Below, one piece after another: positions 22,738-47,912 of a stretch of 64,000 nucleotides of DNA. Each line of letters begins with the position of its first letter. Positions within the stretch are counted from its first letter, which is position 1. Made by a program: the position numbers and the translations under genes. The notes beneath the pieces are model-generated. The model did not search any database. It saw nothing but the letters and a program-made list of their open reading frames with translations, and was not told the DNA's origin. Source of the DNA: Candidatus Nomurabacteria bacterium. GTDB lineage: Bacteria > Patescibacteriota > Minisyncoccia > Phycocordibacterales > UBA918. The DNA lies in NCBI GenBank assembly GCA_020632155.1, contig JACKGE010000002.1, positions 21,293 to 85,292 of the forward strand, read 5' to 3'.

Positions 22738-23367
22738 CTAGGCTGTAAAAAAACCTTCATCAATCATTGCGTTACCAATGACTTTATTAAAGCGATGAAT
22801 GCAAGGAAACCGTTGCGTGTACGGGTCTTTAATCTTGAAATGGTCCTCTATGTTTGCATTATGGAAATGGCAAATATCCTTGCCTTCTTTTCTATATAAA
22901 TGGAAGGTTGGCTCAATACGATCGATTGCCTTAGTAAACTGAGCCTCGATTGTTTTTTGTTCTTCATATTCGTTCAAAAGTTCTGTTGCATACCGCTGCA
23001 TTGACGTGGGTATTCGTGTGATGATTTGTTGAGCAGCGAGTGCCTCGGTTTCTCTATCTGCTTGCGTCTTTAGATAACCAATCTTGTCACCAGTTATAAT
23101 CTCATCAATATCGTGATACTGAATCATTCCATATATTCTATGGATATTGAGTGAATTATTAGGGTCTTCAAGGGGTAAAAAGTAATGAACAAGTACATGC
23201 ATCGCATAGACATGTTCTGCTACACTTTCAGTTTCATGTTTTTCAGTTCTATCAAAATGATACCTAATAACTTTTTTAAGCTTGAAAAGTTCCTGAAGCT
23301 TCTTTGTTTCAGAAGCGACAAACTCATCATCTTCTAGTATTCGTTTTCTAGTTTCTTCGAGGGTCAT
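22738..23367 (-). CDS. HD-domain hydrolase (YfbR-like 5'-deoxynucleotidase family)
   Basis: H...HVYAMHVL ... YHDIDEIITGD HD motif. Confidence 0.6.
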   Translation of the reverse strand: MTLEETRKRILEDDEFVASETKKLQELFKLKKVIRYHFDRTEKHETESVAEHVYAMHVLVHYFLPLEDPNNSLNIHRIYGMIQYHDIDEIITGDKIGYLKTQADRETEALAAQQIITRIPTSMQRYATELLNEYEEQKTIEAQFTKAIDRIEPTFHLYRKEGKDICHFHNANIEDHFKIKDPYTQRFPCIHRFNKVIGNAMIDEGFFTA

Positions 23368-26720: not shown

Positions 26721-27083
26721 TTACTCTACCACTTCTTTTGTAAAAATCAATTCTGCCCAGTTTGAATTCATCATGTTATGTACAACTGAAAATTGAGAAA
26801 GTTGAGTGTCCTCTCTCATATAAGAATGTAAAAATGTACAGATTCTTTCACATAACAGATCACCTTCGTTTGGAGAATACTCATCCTTAAATGTAAGATG
26901 AAGTACCAGCGATGGAGATTCTCCCTCATCCATTTTTTCCCAGTCAGTTGTTTCTTCAAGTAAATCTGCAAAATCACTATTAAAAAGCCACCCTCGTATT
27001 GCAGCCTGTAATTTTAAAACAGGCCCTTGCTCGCGTTTTAATTTTTCTGCGGCAAAATCAATTGGTTTGGGTTCTTTTTCCAT
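26721..27083 (-). CDS. Hypothetical protein
   Basis: ORF only. Confidence 0.35.
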   Translation of the reverse strand: MEKEPKPIDFAAEKLKREQGPVLKLQAAIRGWLFNSDFADLLEETTDWEKMDEGESPSLVLHLTFKDEYSPNEGDLLCERICTFLHSYMREDTQLSQFSVVHNMMNSNWAELIFTKEVVE

Positions 27084-28066: not shown

Positions 28067-29725
28067 CTACATTGCCAGCGGCAGTTCAATGGTAAAGGTA
28101 GAGCCCCTGCCCTCTCCTTCTGATGTAGCATAGAGGTCGCCTTTCATGGCCTGCGCCATAGTGCGCGCTACAAAGAGCCCAAGACCGGTACCGGTGACGT
28201 TTACCTCGTTGGCATTATGAGCACGCTCAAACTTATCAAATACGCTATGGAGAGTCTCTTCAGACATACCGATACCGGTGTCAGTAACCTCGACAAATAC
28301 CTTCTTGGTTTTTTTATCATCACGAACACGAACGTCAACAGAACCCTTCGGTGTGTACTTCATGGAGTTATCAATGATATTTTGGATGACCTGTTTGGTT
28401 TTGCCTATATCCGCATTCACTATTCCGCGGCCGTTTAAGTCTGATTTAAACGTAAGCAAAATACCTTTCTTGATACCCTGCGGCCTGAGTTCATCAACTA
28501 CAGACTCTGTGAGATCTTTGAGATTAAAATCCGAGTACTCATACTTCATGTTGCCGGACTGGATACGTGATACGTTGAGGTAGTCTTCTACTGAAAGGGC
28601 CATAAAACGACTCGAGTCAGCAATGTGCTGCAGCACCTCTTGTGCTTTAGGTGACACTTTTCCGTAGGTACCCTCAAGGAGCATTGACGTATAGCCGCGA
28701 ATAGACGTTAGTGGACTACGCAACTGGTGAGAAGCTATAGAGACAAATTCTGACTTCATTTGGTCAAGTTGTTTAAGGCGCTTATTGGCACGCTGCAATT
28801 TTTGCGCCAACGCCTCGATCTCTTGTCGTTGCTGAAATTCTTGTCGCACAGACCTGATAAGCAAAAAGCCAGCTATTGAAGTAAAGCCTAGTGTTATCAG
28901 TGTGATTGGTGTCGCTATCTCTGTGTCAACAAACAACAATGAACAAACTAATGCCCATAACACTGCGACAATCACTTGAGCGCCAGCTATCTGAGCACGA
29001 AAAGCGTTGAAGCGTACAACACTATACGCAATAAGGGCAGCGAAAAGTGGCATGCCAAACAATCCATACTGACTCAGTGTCCACTCGTCAGTAAAGCTGC
29101 TGATGATGTTTCCTGAAGTAAATGACAACAGAAACGTCACTAGGCCGATAGAAAAGTAAGTAGCAGAACGTTTTCGTTCTTGCATCAGCGGTATGTTTCT
29201 AAAGCTTACAGCCAATATCATGCATGTAAACAGCAGGTTCAAAAAGTAGGTATAGTACTTTGCTATAGGCCCTTCAATACTTTCGCAACTTGAAAGCTGA
29301 AGTGCCTCAAGGTTGAGTGTTGTTGGTAGTAGTAGAATGAGTGGCAAAAGTGCCCCCGTAACTATGAGCTGGTATCTTAATGGCGGCTGGTTTCCGTGAA
29401 AGTATATATAAACCAAGAAAAATGCAATTGCGTATACAAGTGGCTCAAGTAAAACCTGCAATGACCACGCAAACATCACCACTGCAGGGTCATTTGTTGC
29501 CCATAGGGCCACATCTAGCAGTGCCCAAACACTAAACAGTACTGCAAAAAATACAAAGAGTCTTGAGAGTAGCGCCTTGGGGTTATTTACAAATATTAGC
29601 AAGCTAACAGCCAAAGCGGAAAAGATCGCAATAAAGTGTGAGTAGTTAATCAACAGCGGTACGTTTGAAGATACGAAGAGAAATGTGGCTGATTCCCAAG
29701 GACAAAAAAGTGGTGACATAGGCAT
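28067..29725 (-). CDS. Sensor histidine kinase with a polytopic (about 8 TM) N-terminal sensor domain
   Basis: HisKA H-box FVSIASHQLRSPLTSIRGY, and HATPase_c N/G boxes (NIIDNSMKYT, DTGIGM, GTGLGL). Confidence 0.85.
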   Translation of the reverse strand: MPMSPLFCPWESATFLFVSSNVPLLINYSHFIAIFSALAVSLLIFVNNPKALLSRLFVFFAVLFSVWALLDVALWATNDPAVVMFAWSLQVLLEPLVYAIAFFLVYIYFHGNQPPLRYQLIVTGALLPLILLLPTTLNLEALQLSSCESIEGPIAKYYTYFLNLLFTCMILAVSFRNIPLMQERKRSATYFSIGLVTFLLSFTSGNIISSFTDEWTLSQYGLFGMPLFAALIAYSVVRFNAFRAQIAGAQVIVAVLWALVCSLLFVDTEIATPITLITLGFTSIAGFLLIRSVRQEFQQRQEIEALAQKLQRANKRLKQLDQMKSEFVSIASHQLRSPLTSIRGYTSMLLEGTYGKVSPKAQEVLQHIADSSRFMALSVEDYLNVSRIQSGNMKYEYSDFNLKDLTESVVDELRPQGIKKGILLTFKSDLNGRGIVNADIGKTKQVIQNIIDNSMKYTPKGSVDVRVRDDKKTKKVFVEVTDTGIGMSEETLHSVFDKFERAHNANEVNVTGTGLGLFVARTMAQAMKGDLYATSEGEGRGSTFTIELPLAM

Positions 29726-29728
29726 GTA

Positions 29729-29875
29729 TTATTCCTCTACCTCGGTTACCTCATCCAAATCATCGATAACTACAAAATCACGAACGACTACCATTTTGTA
29801 ATACGTTGCCGTTATTGACAGTAATATCAAAATAAATACGGTCCAGAGTAATGTGTTGGAATATTTTTCTTCCAT
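29729..29875 (-). CDS. Putative 48-aa small membrane protein immediately upstream of the histidine kinase
   Basis: Manual translation gives MEEKYSNTLLWTVFILILLSITATYYKMVVVRDFVVIDDLDEVTEVEE, with one TM helix; its stop lies 4 nt before the kinase start. Confidence 0.3.
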   Translation of the reverse strand: MEEKYSNTLLWTVFILILLSITATYYKMVVVRDFVVIDDLDEVTEVEE

Positions 29876-29977
29876 ACTGATATGCAGCGATTCTCAATGG
29901 GCTTCTTGTTATTCATGATACAGTATGAAAGTCAAAAAGATTTGTCGTTTGGGGATTTCTAAATAATTATTCTTCAT

Positions 29978-31072
29978 ATGTCTTCAGAAGCAAAAAGTCA
30001 GTTTGGAAAAGTTTGGTCATGTAATGAGTGGGACCCGCTTGAAGAGGTTATTGTCGGTACAGTTAAATATGCCACAGTTCCAAAATGGACCCCTTGGCTA
30101 GCCTCCACTACCCCGTCTCATGCCAAGTGGTTTTTTGAAAAATATGGAGGACAGCCCTTCCCCGAAGAGATGACCGAAAATGCTGAAGTTGAGTTAGATA
30201 ATTTATCTAATGTTCTTACAGAACTTGGTGTCACTGTGCACCGTCCAACACCCTTTGATTTTGGCCAAGAGTATCGAACGCCATGGTGGGACAGCCAAGG
30301 GCTGTATGCAGCTATGCCGCGGGACGTGATGATGGTTGTTGGAGACACGATTGTTGAGGCGCCTATGGCGTGGCGATCGCGTTACTTTGAAATATTTGCT
30401 TTTAGAGACCTTATTGAAAAATACTTTGAGGGTGGCGCTAAGTGGCTTGCGGCACCTAAGTCTTCCATGAGTGATTCTTTTTACCGACGAGATTACGATC
30501 CTGAAAACCCAACTATAGATGGTGTTCGTCAGTTTGTAATCTCGGAACGTGAAGTTTCATTTGATGCTGCTGACTTCACTCGTGTGGGCAAAGACATCTT
30601 TGTACAAAAGTCCAACGTTACAAATACTCTCGGTATTGAGTGGGTGCGACGCCATATTGGCGATGAGTACACCATTCACGAGGTTGAGTTTGGTGATGAA
30701 CATCCCATGCATATCGATACGACCATAGTTCCGCTTGCTCCTGGAAAGTTGATGATAAACCCGTCATGGGTCACTCGTGATCAAATACCAAAAATATTTG
30801 ACTCGTGGGAAATAATTGAAGCTCCAGAGCCGGTACATCCGTATGATAAAGCCCTCTACTTCTCAAGTGATTGGCTCACTATGAACTTTCTCAGTATAGA
30901 TGAACGAAGAATTCTAGTAGAAGAAAATGAAGCGCCTTTGATCGAATTGCTACGAAAACATGGTTTTGAACCAATTCCTATTCCGTTCCGCAATTTTTAT
31001 CCTTTTGGAGGCTCCATACATTGTGCTACTGCCGATATCAGGCGTCGTGGTGAGCTGAAGTCTTATTTCTAA
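29978..31072 (+). CDS. Amidinotransferase, close homologue of L-arginine:glycine amidinotransferase (AGAT/GATM family)
   Basis: Long co-linear similarity to AGAT as I recall it: NEWDPLEEVIVG, GVTV+RP.P.D, GLYAAMPRD, EAPMAWR.R.FE, FDAADF, GIEW+RRH, PMHID (catalytic His) and a C-terminal GGSIHCATADIRRRG (catalytic Cys). Confidence 0.85.
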   Translation: MSSEAKSQFGKVWSCNEWDPLEEVIVGTVKYATVPKWTPWLASTTPSHAKWFFEKYGGQPFPEEMTENAEVELDNLSNVLTELGVTVHRPTPFDFGQEYRTPWWDSQGLYAAMPRDVMMVVGDTIVEAPMAWRSRYFEIFAFRDLIEKYFEGGAKWLAAPKSSMSDSFYRRDYDPENPTIDGVRQFVISEREVSFDAADFTRVGKDIFVQKSNVTNTLGIEWVRRHIGDEYTIHEVEFGDEHPMHIDTTIVPLAPGKLMINPSWVTRDQIPKIFDSWEIIEAPEPVHPYDKALYFSSDWLTMNFLSIDERRILVEENEAPLIELLRKHGFEPIPIPFRNFYPFGGSIHCATADIRRRGELKSYF

Positions 31073-31079
31073 AATAAAC

Positions 31080-32078
31080 TTAACTTGCGATTACTATAGT
31101 ACCAATCACGATTAGTAAAATACCACTAACTTTAAGGTATTTAGCTGTACCTTTAAACGCCTCTTCATAAACAGGAATGCCTGTTTTCGCTAAGACACCA
31201 CCAATCACTAACGTAAACAAAGGGTGAAACGAATTCATCGTACTAACCAGCATAACTGAAGGACCAAACACAAGCGCTAGTTGATTGAAAAAAGCAGATA
31301 TCGCGTACAGACCTTCATTTAGTGTTTGTAACGCAATGATGTGAAACTTAAAGCTACGGACTCGATTCCAAAACTGAGAGCGGTATGGTTTCCACAGTAT
31401 CCATATCACAATGCTAAGTAACGCCATGCCAATTCCATTTCCAAGAAGTGCTGTAGCAAAATTACTGATCTCTGCAGCGTCTTTGAACAAAAAATATCCA
31501 AGGCTTATCAAACTTGAAGCTAAGAACATCAAGCCTACTGTTTTTTTGTCCAGTTGTTTTATTTCAGGTGAATAGTTTAGTAAAAACGCACCACACAAAA
31601 TGAAAAGCGAAGCTACTATGTGTATTGTTGTAGGAAATTCTGCGAATAACACATACCCAAATAAGAGCGCAAAAATTGGTACTGACTGAAAAAGTGGAGT
31701 TACTCGAAGTGCTCCACCACGTTGTAGTGCATAAAAATACGGTATTAGCCAAAGTACTTCAATCATTCCAGCTCCAACAGCGTTCACGAGACTTACTTTA
31801 CTGAAGATTAATGTCACGGAGTCAGTAAGACAAGCGGCCAAATACACGATTAAACTTATAACAAGACCAAAAAAACCCGAGACCAAAAGTAATTGACCAG
31901 GGGCGTCCATATCCAAAGATTCAGTCGTTGAATCAGTTGAAAGTCTTTGTAAAAGCAATTCGTCAATGAATCCAACACAAACGTCACTCAAAGTAGATAG
32001 TAGTGAAAAGATAACCCATGGCAAAGTAAAAAATAGCGTTGTCTTTGCAAACACATCAAGGGCAACAGAAAAATCCAT
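31080..32078 (-). CDS. Polytopic (about 10 TM) membrane protein, DMT/EamA-like transporter
   Basis: Two roughly 5-TM halves; hydrophobic profile and size consistent with DMT-superfamily permeases. Confidence 0.45.
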   Translation of the reverse strand: MDFSVALDVFAKTTLFFTLPWVIFSLLSTLSDVCVGFIDELLLQRLSTDSTTESLDMDAPGQLLLVSGFFGLVISLIVYLAACLTDSVTLIFSKVSLVNAVGAGMIEVLWLIPYFYALQRGGALRVTPLFQSVPIFALLFGYVLFAEFPTTIHIVASLFILCGAFLLNYSPEIKQLDKKTVGLMFLASSLISLGYFLFKDAAEISNFATALLGNGIGMALLSIVIWILWKPYRSQFWNRVRSFKFHIIALQTLNEGLYAISAFFNQLALVFGPSVMLVSTMNSFHPLFTLVIGGVLAKTGIPVYEEAFKGTAKYLKVSGILLIVIGTIVIAS

Positions 32079-32089
32079 GATTGATTATT

Positions 32090-32575
32090 TTATAAGAAAA
32101 ATAGTGTTACCAGTGGTACGAGGAGCCACCAAAAAAAGCTGCTTTCACTACCAAAGATAGATGCTACTGGTGAGCCGGGATCAACGAGGTCTGTTACCGG
32201 CAGTGCGTGGTAACTGTAGATGACTACGAGGATAGTAGCCAGTATTGCATACAAGAATTTCTTACCAAAACCCTCAAAGGCTTTTTCGTCGTATTCTCTT
32301 GGCATCAATCGATTAAACAGTAGATATGACAAAAAAGTAAAAACAATGAATACAATAACCATTAATACCGAAGTAGTCTTTGAGGACCCGCTACCACCGA
32401 CTATGTAGCTATAGTATGGGAACTCAAGTGAGATCAAAAGGGCCAAGTACAATCCCATAATGAGATTTATAAGGGTTTGTCTGCCTTTAATCATTGCCAA
32501 TGAAATAAACAGCAAAAGTACCACAATCACAAACAATGATTCTTGCAAAGCGGATATTAGTGCACTGGCATCCAT
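32090..32575 (-). CDS. Hypothetical 4-TM membrane protein
   Basis: ORF with 4 hydrophobic helices. Confidence 0.35.
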   Translation of the reverse strand: MDASALISALQESLFVIVVLLLFISLAMIKGRQTLINLIMGLYLALLISLEFPYYSYIVGGSGSSKTTSVLMVIVFIVFTFLSYLLFNRLMPREYDEKAFEGFGKKFLYAILATILVVIYSYHALPVTDLVDPGSPVASIFGSESSFFWWLLVPLVTLFFL

Positions 32576-32648
32576 ATGCTTAATTATACGTTTGCATTTT
32601 GAACAGTATCAGTACTGGGTGGATAACTATGTCCTCACGTAGTCTGGC

Positions 32649-36922: not shown

Positions 36923-37159
36923 TTTGTTTTTATGTAAGTCAAAAATTAGAAAACATAGTCTTTACTTGAGTATTTTACGTACAAGAGTATTGTCAACTAT
37001 TGAAAAAAGTTGTGTACTAACAACTCCTCTTGTCAGATTGCTACAATGATGGTGCCACTGATGTTTCAGTGGGAATGTGCTGAGAATGCTCTCGTTAGTT
37101 TTCTCGCCAGCCTTGGAACTCTGGTAGACGTGCGCGCAAGCGCACCTCACGCCAGCCTA

Positions 37160-37320
37160 CTTAGGTTCTGTGTTGGACAAGTAGTGAAATGCACATGCAC
37201 CCTCGTGGTACATGGTCCGTGGAGGTTGGGTTCGTTCCTCGAACTTGATCGGACAGCAAAACAGTTTCCGCAACACAGACCAAAAAACTCCCTTCGGGGA
37301 GTTTTTTGGTACGCTGTTTC
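37160..37320 (+). ncRNA. Candidate structured RNA of about 150 nt ending in a strong intrinsic terminator; family unknown and strand assignment tentative
   Basis: Closing stem ggttctgtgttgg / ccgcaacacagacc enclosing several sub-hairpins (e.g. gtgcgc-GCAA-gcgcac just upstream, gttcg-ttcct-cgaac), then aaaaaactccc-ttcg-gggagtttttt at 37282-37307. Confidence 0.3.
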
Positions 37321-37376
37321 AACCTTAAAGGCTGGCGCCCCAAACGATAAAAATGAAGTGCGGAACAAGGCGGACA

Positions 37377-37422
37377 AGAAAAAAGACCCGAGTGGGGCAA
37401 CAGCCCAGGCAGGGTCTTTTTT
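37377..37422. terminator. Intrinsic terminator downstream of rpsI (minus strand); could also terminate plus-strand transcription
   Basis: aaaaaagaccc...gggtctttttt nested GC hairpin flanked by A and T runs. Confidence 0.65.
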
Positions 37423-37451
37423 CGTAGGACAACGCAGTTAAGCATTCATTT

Positions 37452-46091: not shown

Positions 46092-47912
46092 TTACTTTTT
46101 AGTAAGCTTCTGAAACAAGTCGATATCGTCTTCAAGAATTTTGAGACCTTCTAAGAAAGTTTCATTTTTACTCATATCAATCCCAATCTTGTTAAAAATT
46201 GTCTCTACATTTGCCGACTCACCCAAAGTAAAGAATGTATCTACTTCCTTTCGATACGAATGATCTTGATGATACCGTTTACGCATAATACTACTGCCTA
46301 TTTCACCAAATGAATACGAATACTGGTAGAAATTGCTGCGATAGTGTACTTTCGTGAATACGGACAATCCATCATCGCGATTCATTTTAATTGCCGGACC
46401 GGCATACTCACCCAGATGTTTGCTAAGTGCGGTAGCCATATCTTGCCAGCTCATACCACCGGCTCGCCGAATAGTTTCGTGCATCTCAAGTTCAAATTTA
46501 AATCGAGAAATACACATGACCATTGTCATTAACCGATCAGCGATGGAGCTGTGCAAAAATGCAAGTTGATCATTTCCAGTTAGATTTGCAATAAGGTGTT
46601 CCGCTAGCAGTGACTCAAAGAAAGTACTGGCAGTTTCTGCCGTTAAAATTGAATGTCCTTCATAGTGAGCTGGTTGCTCCTTGCTCCTATATGCATGTAT
46701 GGCATGACCCATTTCATGAGCTATTGTTCGCAACGAATCAATTGAGTCGTTTTGGTTAAGTAGTATAAGAGTTGGTTTATCAATGCCAGAACTGCAAAAA
46801 GCACCACTACCTTTACCTTTTTTTGGCCAGACATCAATTTGGCTGCTTTCCAGCATCCCATCCAGTATTTTTCCGTACTTTGGGTCGAATCCATAGTACA
46901 CATCACGTACGATTGAAATGGCAGTCTTGAAATCAATAGTCGGGGCTTTTCCAATGGGTTCATTACGGTCTATATACGTGAGGTCTGTACCAAGTAACTT
47001 CTTTTTTAGTTTGAAAAATCGGTTTGATAGTTCGTACCCTTTAGTTTCAATTACTGAAACCAGCCGTTCAAGGGTCTCGTCGCTACTGTCATAGGCGCGC
47101 GTGGTTGCAGAGTAGGGTTTTTTGTATCCACGCAGTTCGTCGTTTGCTTTTTTATCAAGGACAAGGGCGACTAGCTCATTTTCAGCAAACTCTGCTATTT
47201 CTTCCACTACGGGAACAATTTTTTTCCACATCTGATGTCGTTCTTTCCTCGGCAAATTCTCAACCTGCATCATGGCTCCATTCAGTGGTAGCTCCTTGCC
47301 CTTCCACGTAATAGTTCGTTTATTTTGTATTTTTTCTGTAGCAATCATCCACAAACCGCGCGAGGTTTGTGCTTTTAAATTTAATATTTTTTCCTCTGGC
47401 TCAGTCAGCATATATTGTGCATTTTCAAATACACCCTGCAGGTAAAAATGAAGGTTTTTGATTGACGAGTCAGACAACAGTTGCTTCTGTAACGACTTAG
47501 GTAACGTAGCTAGTTCAACATCAAAAAAGATCAGCATGTTTGCAGTTTTCGTCAATCGTTCCTCAATCTTGTTCAGCATTCTCTCTGCTTTTTGATCTTG
47601 CGAATCAAGAACGGTACGGTATGACAAATAGTACGCAACGCGATCACCAGGTAAATGCAAAAGTTTTAGATATTGCCGAACTGCTTTTATAACTGCAGGC
47701 TTAGACTTTTTCCACTGGCCATCATTGTGATTTTGTACAAATTTTTTAATCGCTTGCTCAGTTTTTTTAAGATCTTTTTCAATTTGAAGATCCGCTTCTG
47801 AGTTATAAAAAAAATTACTGAGATCCCACGTCTCTTTGATCTTACCTAACCTCGGTAGCTGATTTACCGGAGTGTATTTAAAAGCGGCTTTCTTTGGTTT
47901 TTTTGACATCAA
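46092..47912 (-). CDS. pepF: Oligoendopeptidase F (M3B)
   Basis: HEMGHAIH zinc-binding HExxH in an M3 context. Confidence 0.85.
   Translation of the reverse strand: MMSKKPKKAAFKYTPVNQLPRLGKIKETWDLSNFFYNSEADLQIEKDLKKTEQAIKKFVQNHNDGQWKKSKPAVIKAVRQYLKLLHLPGDRVAYYLSYRTVLDSQDQKAERMLNKIEERLTKTANMLIFFDVELATLPKSLQKQLLSDSSIKNLHFYLQGVFENAQYMLTEPEEKILNLKAQTSRGLWMIATEKIQNKRTITWKGKELPLNGAMMQVENLPRKERHQMWKKIVPVVEEIAEFAENELVALVLDKKANDELRGYKKPYSATTRAYDSSDETLERLVSVIETKGYELSNRFFKLKKKLLGTDLTYIDRNEPIGKAPTIDFKTAISIVRDVYYGFDPKYGKILDGMLESSQIDVWPKKGKGSGAFCSSGIDKPTLILLNQNDSIDSLRTIAHEMGHAIHAYRSKEQPAHYEGHSILTAETASTFFESLLAEHLIANLTGNDQLAFLHSSIADRLMTMVMCISRFKFELEMHETIRRAGGMSWQDMATALSKHLGEYAGPAIKMNRDDGLSVFTKVHYRSNFYQYSYSFGEIGSSIMRKRYHQDHSYRKEVDTFFTLGESANVETIFNKIGIDMSKNETFLEGLKILEDDIDLFQKLTKK

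Follow-up and report, generated by a model that had tools for sequence, protein, structure and literature searches.

Amidinotransferases of the L-arginine:glycine amidinotransferase (AGAT) family work by a reversible ping-pong mechanism, as AGAT itself does, and all characterised members that we know of (AGAT, StrB1) use small-molecule substrates, which enter by a narrow channel. Among them, HsvA of Erwinia amylovora and Pseudomonas syringae supplies the amidinospermidine core of phevamine, a suppressor of plant immunity. HsvA amidinates, and prefers, spermidine (PMC6187163), and the acidic pocket of SxtG takes cationic amines (PMC12371840). Our literature search on amidinotransferases found none linked with Patescibacteria, the candidate phyla radiation (CPR), Parcubacteria, Nomurabacteria, Kaiserbacteria or Paceibacteria; the CPR papers that it turned up concern arginine deiminase and graspetides instead. 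Here we describe an amidinotransferase (AT) gene in a stretch of 64,000 nucleotides of a Candidatus Nomurabacteria bacterium (GenBank assembly GCA_020632155.1, contig JACKGE010000002.1, positions 21,293 to 85,292), which is called the window below. The explanation that we favour as a whole, and hold to be probable, is that of an ancient, vertically inherited amidinotransferase which is partnered with a trio of genes for an EamA permease, a micro-protein and a histidine kinase (HK), and which uses a cationic amine as acceptor.

Family assignment and active site

The gene in question is the following:

29978-31072, plus strand: amidinotransferase (AT) of the AGAT/SxtG/HsvA type, 364 amino acids (aa); intact open reading frame (ORF), phmmer matches in the PDB from 5e-106 to 7e-104

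AT was compared with all PDB sequences, and its homology rests on solved structures, not on Pfam. The best-scoring solved relative is SxtG (PDB 6U1R; E = 5e-106, 48% identity), and closely similar scores were obtained for human AGAT (GATM, PDB 1JDW; E = 5e-104, 46% identity, with AT residues 12 to 363 aligned to AGAT 66 to 421) and HsvA (PDB 5WPI; E = 7e-104, 48% identity), while StrB1 follows at E = 2e-69 and 39% identity (PDB 1BWD). All four alignments span the whole length of AT (residues 12-364), so that the full-length match to vertebrate AGAT reported by a first-pass annotation, which had been made from the sequence alone, is borne out.

The active site was examined in an alignment of 81 family members and the four solved enzymes, in which the AGAT numbering was verified against the AGAT sequence. 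The catalytic triad D196, H245 and C349 (AGAT D254, H303 and C407), the guanidino-binding aspartates D116 and D247 (AGAT D170 and D305) and S297 (AGAT S355) are all kept in the 20 members of the CPR clade defined in the next section. The motifs singled out in the first-pass annotation do hold catalytic residues, namely D196 in FDAADF, H245 together with D247 in PMHID, and C349 in GGSIHCAT. From the conservation of these residues a working amidinotransferase is predicted, and AT is very probably an active, arginine-dependent enzyme.

In Pfam-A and NCBIfam no model matched AT above threshold. The search with PF02274, by which the family assignment was to be checked, likewise stayed below it (E = 0.024, 14.1 bits against a cut-off of 22.8) and covered only the C-terminal 55 residues; the model bears the name ADI (arginine deiminase) in the Pfam version used. 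This result shows that the AGAT branch is outside the reach of the model, and is not evidence for another type of protein. An ADI or DDAH identity was rejected, in agreement with the earlier assignment: the NCBIfam DDAH models stayed far below their cut-offs of 300 and 340, with 22.7 and 16.7 bits, and no ADI or DDAH chain occurs among the PDB matches of AT at E <= 1e-3. The AT sequence is 100% identical to an NCBI protein recorded for Candidatus Nomurabacteria. In the databases it already goes under "amidinotransferase" or "glycine amidinotransferase", the latter being the JGI name for relatives. An AlphaFold2 model built on a 16-sequence alignment of the clade had a mean pLDDT of 62.6, with active-site segments below 50; it was too poor for pocket analysis or a fold search and was not used. 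By every sequence feature that could be tested, AT is an uncharacterised member of the AGAT-type amidinotransferase family.

Gene order and descent of the amidinotransferase

In the window, AT is placed among four genes of the opposite strand:

28067-29725, minus strand: histidine kinase (HK), 552 aa, with an N-terminal domain of 7-8 transmembrane (TM) segments; HisKA 2.7e-15, HATPase_c 2.3e-25
29729-29875, minus strand: p48, a 48-aa single-TM micro-protein with an acidic tail and the motif V-x-R-D-F-x-V, directly upstream of the kinase gene
31080-32078, minus strand: EamA/DMT-type permease, 332 aa, about 10 TM segments; PF00892 1.1e-8
32090-32575, minus strand: m161, a membrane protein of 161 aa that has 4 hydrophobic segments, encoded upstream of EamA in the same direction

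The gene for p48 was called in independent assemblies and encodes one hydrophobic segment. The reading of 31080-32078 as an EamA/DMT transporter is confirmed by PF00892, which detects one repeat at 35.9 bits (cut-off 28.2), and by the roughly 10 hydrophobic segments seen in a crude hydropathy scan; no NCBIfam equivalog matched it. The description of its neighbour m161 as a 4-TM protein also agrees with our scan. This protein, which has no Pfam or NCBIfam family, is confined to loci of the gene order of the window and is 50-59% identical among them. The AT and EamA genes converge with a gap of 7 bp. Beyond HK, on the upstream, opposite-strand side of AT, lies the TrpRS gene, and past m161, downstream of AT, come genes for an Impact/YigZ homologue, DnaJ, DnaK, GrpE and ribosomal proteins. 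Three data sets independently yielded an assembly of the locus.

Relatives of AT, 224 in number, were found in a GTDB scan in which each species was represented by one genome. The CPR clade comprises about 20 genomes with 63-84% identity to AT (Kaiserbacteria, Paceibacteria/Paceibacterota, Minisyncoccia and Parcubacteria); the best non-CPR relative, in a Caulobacterales metagenome-assembled genome (MAG), reaches 50%, and a large StrB1-like group 36-40%. Four MAGs with a Saccharibacteria label (L018, L021, L027 and L037) and one with a Bacillota label (L022) show a gene order of the Paceibacteria type, and these submitter labels look wrong.

Three gene orders are found in the clade. Order A, that of the window, has TrpRS, HK and p48 on one strand, AT alone on the other, and EamA and m161 on the first strand again. 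In order B, p208, p67, AT, a PRMT-like methyltransferase and HK follow one another on the same strand, and in order C, HK diverges from AT, which is followed by EamA in its own direction. Furthermore, one locus (L029) has EamA, p67, AT and HK in a row on one strand.

The family trees, built by neighbour-joining only and from a set that leaves out CyrA and AmtA, recover the CPR sequences as monophyletic (100/100) and place them within the "long" group of AGAT, SxtG and HsvA (100/100) and outside the StrB1-like group (100/100); the CPR clade joins AGAT alone in 2/100 and HsvA in 16/100. Its subclades coincide with the three gene-order types. Moreover, the identity of the AT sequences to the window copy correlates with that of their neighbours (Spearman 0.77 for TrpRS, 0.78 for HK and 0.68 for DnaJ), and the arrangement TrpRS-HK-p48-AT-EamA-m161-Impact-DnaJ-DnaK-GrpE recurs in relatives whose AT is 73-84% identical. 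In the closest relative AT is the best conserved protein of the locus, with 84% identity as against 81% for TrpRS, 68% for HK, 65% for DnaJ and 52% for EamA. EamA orthologues share 49-52% identity in type-A relatives, as against 24-29% in loci of the other orders.

The first-pass annotation had taken AT, EamA and the 4-TM protein to be visibly AT-rich. This is true of EamA, which is clearly the low-GC gene of the locus (38.2% GC; 30.9% at third codon positions, GC3; both -2.3 SD), and of m161 in total GC only (39.7%, with a normal GC3 of 42%). It does not apply to AT, whose GC of 44.3% and GC3 of 37.8% lie within 1.1 SD of the window means (46.4±3.5 and 44.4±5.9, 67 genes) and whose GC matches the local GC in seven hosts that range from 38% to 50%. 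The composition of EamA is atypical in some lineages only, and other genes elsewhere in the window are equally low in GC and scattered. The strand switch noted at AT is real; however, the run of minus-strand genes extends over about 50 kb (14275-63985), not 45 kb, and AT is not the sole exception in it, a second plus-strand ORF (37010-37441, 131 aa) having been accepted by the gene caller (L001).

No mobility genes or domains were found among the neighbours of AT, and the AT region is flanked by no meaningful direct or inverted repeats, only by short imperfect ones. Sites that lack AT occur only in more distant lineages, and close relatives carry it at the same site. In particular, two loci, L152 and L161, have TrpRS, HK and EamA in gene order C without AT, with 27-59 bp between HK and EamA, and nest among AT carriers in the TrpRS tree, which points to an old gain of AT followed by losses.

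These data bear on the proposal that the three genes are a recently and horizontally acquired island for making and exporting guanidinoacetate or homoarginine. The low GC and GC3 of EamA speak for such an island, and its presumed chemistry is favoured by the 46% identity of AT to human AGAT along its whole length, with an intact catalytic centre, and by the label that JGI gives to relatives. The recent-acquisition reading is contradicted by the conserved synteny, the congruent monophyletic clade, the host-tracking GC and the lack of mobility signatures. When related genomes were checked for absence of the island, AT proved to be present, at the same site, in relatives with 73-84% identity, and it is vertically conserved in about 20 genomes with a genome-typical composition. 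Nor do the three genes form an operon or a single module: AT converges with EamA, which belongs to a trio that is widespread without AT, as described below. The strand switch and the mildly lower GC at this site are not the mark of a horizontally acquired island. It follows that we regard the island proposal, with its chemistry, as unlikely, and are highly confident that AT is ancient and has been inherited vertically.

Two other genes of the window are better candidates for a recent gain than AT. The gene lowest in GC (26721-27083, minus strand; 35.8% GC, 25.6% GC3) encodes 120 aa, belongs to no family and is absent from relatives. The second candidate, an HD/YfbR-like gene (22738-23367, minus strand), has 37.0% GC; in two relatives a peptidase M29 replaces the stretch that holds the HD gene and a peptidase M17 in the window. 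Apart from these two, a 606-aa gene (46092-47912, minus strand) has 39.6% GC and 37.1% GC3 amid an otherwise typical stretch. The plus-strand ORF 37010-37441 falls into no family and has no counterpart in relatives; it lies in a stretch of about 530 bp between GrpE and rpsI (36923-37451), a gap which is missing in relative L007 and holds different small ORFs in L004.

Association with the EamA, micro-protein and kinase trio

The HK family adjoins AT in every CPR locus with sufficient flank, and a p48 homologue, recognised by its N-terminal TM segment, the V-x-R-D-F-x-V motif and the acidic tail, is usually next to AT as well; the homologues p67 and p150 precede HK or AT in other gene orders and in loci that lack AT. 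In all three gene orders AT is placed between or beside members of the trio, and the AT gene of order B shows translational coupling to that of the micro-protein.

A protein search with the N-terminal domain of HK gave only 16 matches and missed known homologues. Distant HK homologues led to loci that contain EamA, micro-protein and kinase without AT (L095 and L096), and a scan of metagenomes with the EamA subfamily of such loci returned 80 loci. AT is present in none of these 80. The HK-specific N-terminal domain is found next to EamA in 45 of them, and among the loci with at least 4.7 kb of downstream sequence only 7 have no kinase. The commonest order is EamA, micro-protein and kinase on the same strand, and the window, read on its minus strand, shows the same trio with AT antisense between EamA and the micro-protein. 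The EamA of the window is probably orthologous to the scanned subfamily, to which it is only 24-29% identical. Since the trio is widespread without AT, and AT converges with EamA, the genes for AT, EamA and m161 are not one unit or operon. We know of no prior description of this trio, our literature search having been aimed at the amidinotransferase and not at the trio. In the 64-kb window there is no CheY-like response regulator to go with HK.

Two stretches of non-coding DNA are of interest at this locus:

29876-29977, no strand: divergent intergenic region from the micro-protein/HK operon to AT, with two invariant blocks
32583-32612, minus strand: promoter-like site CTGATA-18-TATAAT upstream of the m161/EamA pair; 10 of 12 consensus matches, found by scan only

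In the first of them, one block is ATGATACAGTA, with an extended -10-like TGATACAGT at 29916-29924, and a second block, TGGGGATT, lies at 29950-29957, at 26-27 nt from ATGATACAGTA. Both blocks are invariant in the seven aligned type-A loci, and the rest of the intergenic DNA is unconserved. TGGGGATT stands 6 to 36 nt from the start codon, depending on the locus, and is therefore not a ribosome-binding site. A riboswitch in the 5' region of AT was considered and rejected, since Rfam gave no match at gathering level and nothing but noise up to E = 10. The two blocks suggest a conserved regulatory arrangement that would be common to AT and the micro-protein/HK operon. As for the second site, promoter-like sites are rarer in that region than in shuffled sequence, and the evidence is weak. 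In the whole 64-kb window we found no tRNA gene and no Rfam family at gathering threshold.

It is conceivable that these genes are historical neighbours, AT being a soluble enzyme that landed once beside EamA and HK and stayed there by low rearrangement, with a permease and a kinase that have nothing to do with it. The single origin of the clade (100/100) means that one insertion suffices; in addition, the trio is common without AT, the whole block from DnaJ to TrpRS is syntenic across these genomes, and AT is on the strand opposite to its neighbours in the window. However, the adjacency of AT has survived at least two rearrangements relative to the micro-protein, HK and EamA (orders A, B and C, and L029), and mere neighbourhood does not sit well with the translational coupling in order B, with the two invariant blocks of the divergent intergenic region, or with the other amine-metabolism enzymes that fill the same slot in relatives. 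We consider this explanation possible but rather doubtful, and a functional link of AT to the trio appears to us evenly poised.

Enzymes around the trio in relatives

The genes next to EamA or HK in relatives share a recurring theme, which is that of arginine-derived amines and S-adenosylmethionine (SAM) chemistry. A pyruvoyl arginine decarboxylase (PvlArgDC) is found by EamA/HK in 4 loci (Pfam 8e-27), and an arginase/agmatinase-family enzyme also occurs there (Pfam 1e-50). AdoMetDC is present in 7 loci, including the AT locus L026, and SAM synthetase (MetK) in 5, and a deoxyhypusine-synthase-family enzyme, which is matched as well by NCBIfam's 1,9-bis(guanidino)-5-aza-nonane synthase model, is found in 3. 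A true GAMT homologue (L143:1695-2420, plus strand) lies between EamA and HK in a single short metagenome contig, with E = 1e-47 to rat and human GAMT; no AT is visible on this 4.1-kb contig.

Enzymes of the kind that modify macromolecules are also represented. The PRMT-like methyltransferase of 281 aa (L010:9164-10009, plus strand; also L013, L026, L028, L140 and L155), whose closest solved relatives are eukaryotic PRMTs (PRMT6 at 1.7e-13, CARM1 and PRMT1), directly precedes HK both in order B and in the AT-less loci L140 and L155. As it adjoins HK without AT in the latter two, its role as an AT-specific partner, in a creatine-like pathway, was rejected. Small SET-domain proteins (PF00856, 1e-15) are found by the trio at L012:7391-7894 (minus strand), directly beside AT, at L130:1206-1766 (plus strand) and in four other loci, and GNAT proteins also occur by EamA/HK. 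A stand-alone LPG-synthase-C homologue (PF09924, 2.8e-24; L095:3593-4513, plus strand) is found in 16-17 loci, commonly directly upstream of EamA. Moreover, a GARS-like ATP-grasp enzyme lies near EamA in 7 loci without AT, and a family of 254-331 aa with no Pfam, NCBIfam or PDB match stands next to EamA in 11 (L148:98-955, plus strand; L160, L165, L158, L135 and L108 among them). None of the enzymes listed in this section, from PvlArgDC to the 254-331-aa family, has a homologue in the 64-kb window.

In characterised relatives of several of these enzymes the targets are basic side chains or the head groups of lipids. The SET-domain, PRMT-like, GNAT, deoxyhypusine-synthase-family and LPG-synthase-C-like proteins around the trio could therefore be taken to mean that AT itself amidinates an envelope or protein amine, for instance that of a lysine side chain, with homoarginine as the result, or that of an amino-lipid. 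We hold this to be very improbable: the characterised members of the family use small molecules through a narrow channel, and the 300-loop that closes the pocket of AGAT is retained in AT.

Acceptor pocket and comparison with known amidinotransferases

AT is about equally similar to enzymes with three different acceptors, AGAT (46%, glycine), HsvA (48%, spermidine) and SxtG (48%, an amino-ketone), and homology alone therefore cannot decide its acceptor. AGAT has the same Cys-His-Asp triad and the same two guanidino-binding aspartates as AT, in which its Ser355, Met302 and 300-loop are also retained. However, the position of AGAT Arg322 is occupied by a tryptophan (W264) and that of Lys356 by an aspartate (D298) in all 20 members of the CPR clade, and the position of Asn300 by a histidine (H242) in 18 of the 20. 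Compared with AGAT, the CPR pocket has lost two positive charges and gained a negative one. The replacements R322W and K356D thus make it less positive than that of AGAT, which hints at a cationic amine as acceptor. Arg322 of AGAT is said, in work of 1997 by Humm and by Fritsche with their colleagues, to bind the substrate carboxylate, and the R322E variant is reportedly inactive. An arginine at this position is kept in AGAT, in L031, in StrB1 and in 56 of 56 StrB1-like sequences. AGAT differs from AT, furthermore, in its mitochondrial presequence, which AT does not have; and the CPR clade is a separate branch that is not nested in AGAT and has no GAMT partner in the window.

HsvA shares with the CPR clade the tryptophan at the position of AGAT 322 (INPSW as against INKGW in AT) and the methionine at that of 302. 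It has asparagine, however, where the CPR sequences have Asp298 and alanine where they have His242, and it has the ATP-grasp partners HsvB and HsvC, whereas no ATP-grasp gene is present at the window locus or in type-A relatives. SxtG resembles AT in having an aromatic residue, phenylalanine, at position 322 and an acidic one, glutamate, at 356; different from AT, it is located in a toxin gene cluster, and its closest companions in the tree are proteobacterial and myxobacterial sequences (L038, 64%) rather than the CPR clade. StrB1 has the same fold family and catalytic residues as AT, but both it and the StrB1-like group (Alphaproteobacteria and Streptomyces) are without the 300-loop sequence and keep Arg322.

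The pocket and the neighbourhood theme together are hints that rank a cationic amine ahead of glycine as the best guess. A di- or polyamine-like cationic amine is accordingly put forward here as a tentative acceptor, and glycine seems to us a rather unlikely one. For glycine and AGAT-type chemistry speak the retained Met302 and 300-loop and the GAMT homologue in the EamA-HK slot of L143, which indicates that guanidinoacetate-type chemistry is not foreign to these organisms; against them speak the tryptophan and the aspartate at positions 322 and 356 in all 20 clade members. An AGAT plus GAMT creatine pathway was rejected, no GAMT homologue being found in the window or in any AT locus. Guanidinoacetate and homoarginine, the products proposed in the first-pass annotation, are possible but not favoured, because the position of AGAT 322 is a tryptophan throughout the clade. 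AT is not demonstrably an arginine:glycine enzyme (EC 2.1.4.1), as it does not show the Arg322 feature.

Proposed role and significance

We infer the activity of AT, its acceptor, the role of EamA and any role of HK as follows. By analogy with the family, L-arginine would bind and Cys349, aided by His245 and Asp196, would take over the amidino group, upon which ornithine would leave; a primary amine would then enter the same pocket and depart as a guanidino compound. The AT gene was either acquired by the ancestor of a Paceibacteria-type CPR subgroup (Nomurabacteria, Kaiserbacteria and relatives) or already carried by it, and has very probably been inherited vertically since then under strong constraint, with losses in some lines. 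The trio would transport and sense arginine-derived cationic amines as one unit, with AT as the enzyme partner of this lineage and EamA as the carrier of its substrate or product.

The reaction might also run in reverse. EamA would then import a guanidino compound with which AT re-amidinates ornithine to arginine, a salvage route that would be of use to an auxotroph lacking an arginine pathway. The reversible mechanism of amidinotransferases, the strong constraint on AT in organisms of minimal biosynthesis (84% identity where DnaJ has 65%) and the adjacent permease are consistent with this; we consider it improbable, for it is not obvious that ornithine would be easier to obtain than arginine, and no ornithine-producing genes were seen near AT.

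Several observations weigh against the favoured explanation, that of an ancient amidinotransferase partnered with the trio and acting on a cationic amine. The constant adjacency of AT and trio could go back to a single ancestral insertion with later local inversions, and would then need no functional link. The position of the CPR clade as sister to (HsvA, (AGAT, L031)) has a support of just 65/100 in the neighbour-joining trees, and the EamA of the window is only 24-29% identical to the subfamily scanned in the metagenomes. The neighbourhood counts were made with no baseline comparison and on loci that are phylogenetically related, and polyamine-type genes are rare beside AT itself, where only the AdoMetDC of L026 and the SET-domain gene of L012 were found. 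As regards the acceptor, HsvA and SxtG use L-arginine as donor despite having no arginine at position 322, and this residue is therefore not a clean acceptor marker but a lead rather than a test; the Met302 and the 300-loop of AGAT, retained in the CPR clade, are compatible with glycine.

A wider version of the proposal may also be considered, which we think unlikely. The trio would be a CPR-wide hub for arginine-derived cationic amines with lineage-specific plug-in enzymes, such as arginine decarboxylase/agmatinase, AdoMetDC with the deoxyhypusine-synthase-like enzyme, the GAMT homologue, the PRMT-like methyltransferase and AT. In this scheme AT, with its invariant Trp264/Asp298 pocket, would have a new acceptor specificity and make an amidinated di- or polyamine for exchange between these ultra-small, host-dependent bacteria and their surroundings or hosts; HsvA and phevamine offer a likeness.

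CPR/Patescibacteria have few biosynthetic genes, and AT is kept at 63-84% identity, above DnaJ and HK; AT is therefore probably important to these bacteria. If its acceptor is polyamine-like, AT would represent a new branch of guanidino-amine metabolism, and this in bacteria about whose interaction chemistry hardly anything is known. The trio with its interchangeable enzymes is a more original lead than AT itself, since trio and arginine, polyamine or SAM enzymes together would provide a concrete locus for the sensing and moving of small cationic metabolites.

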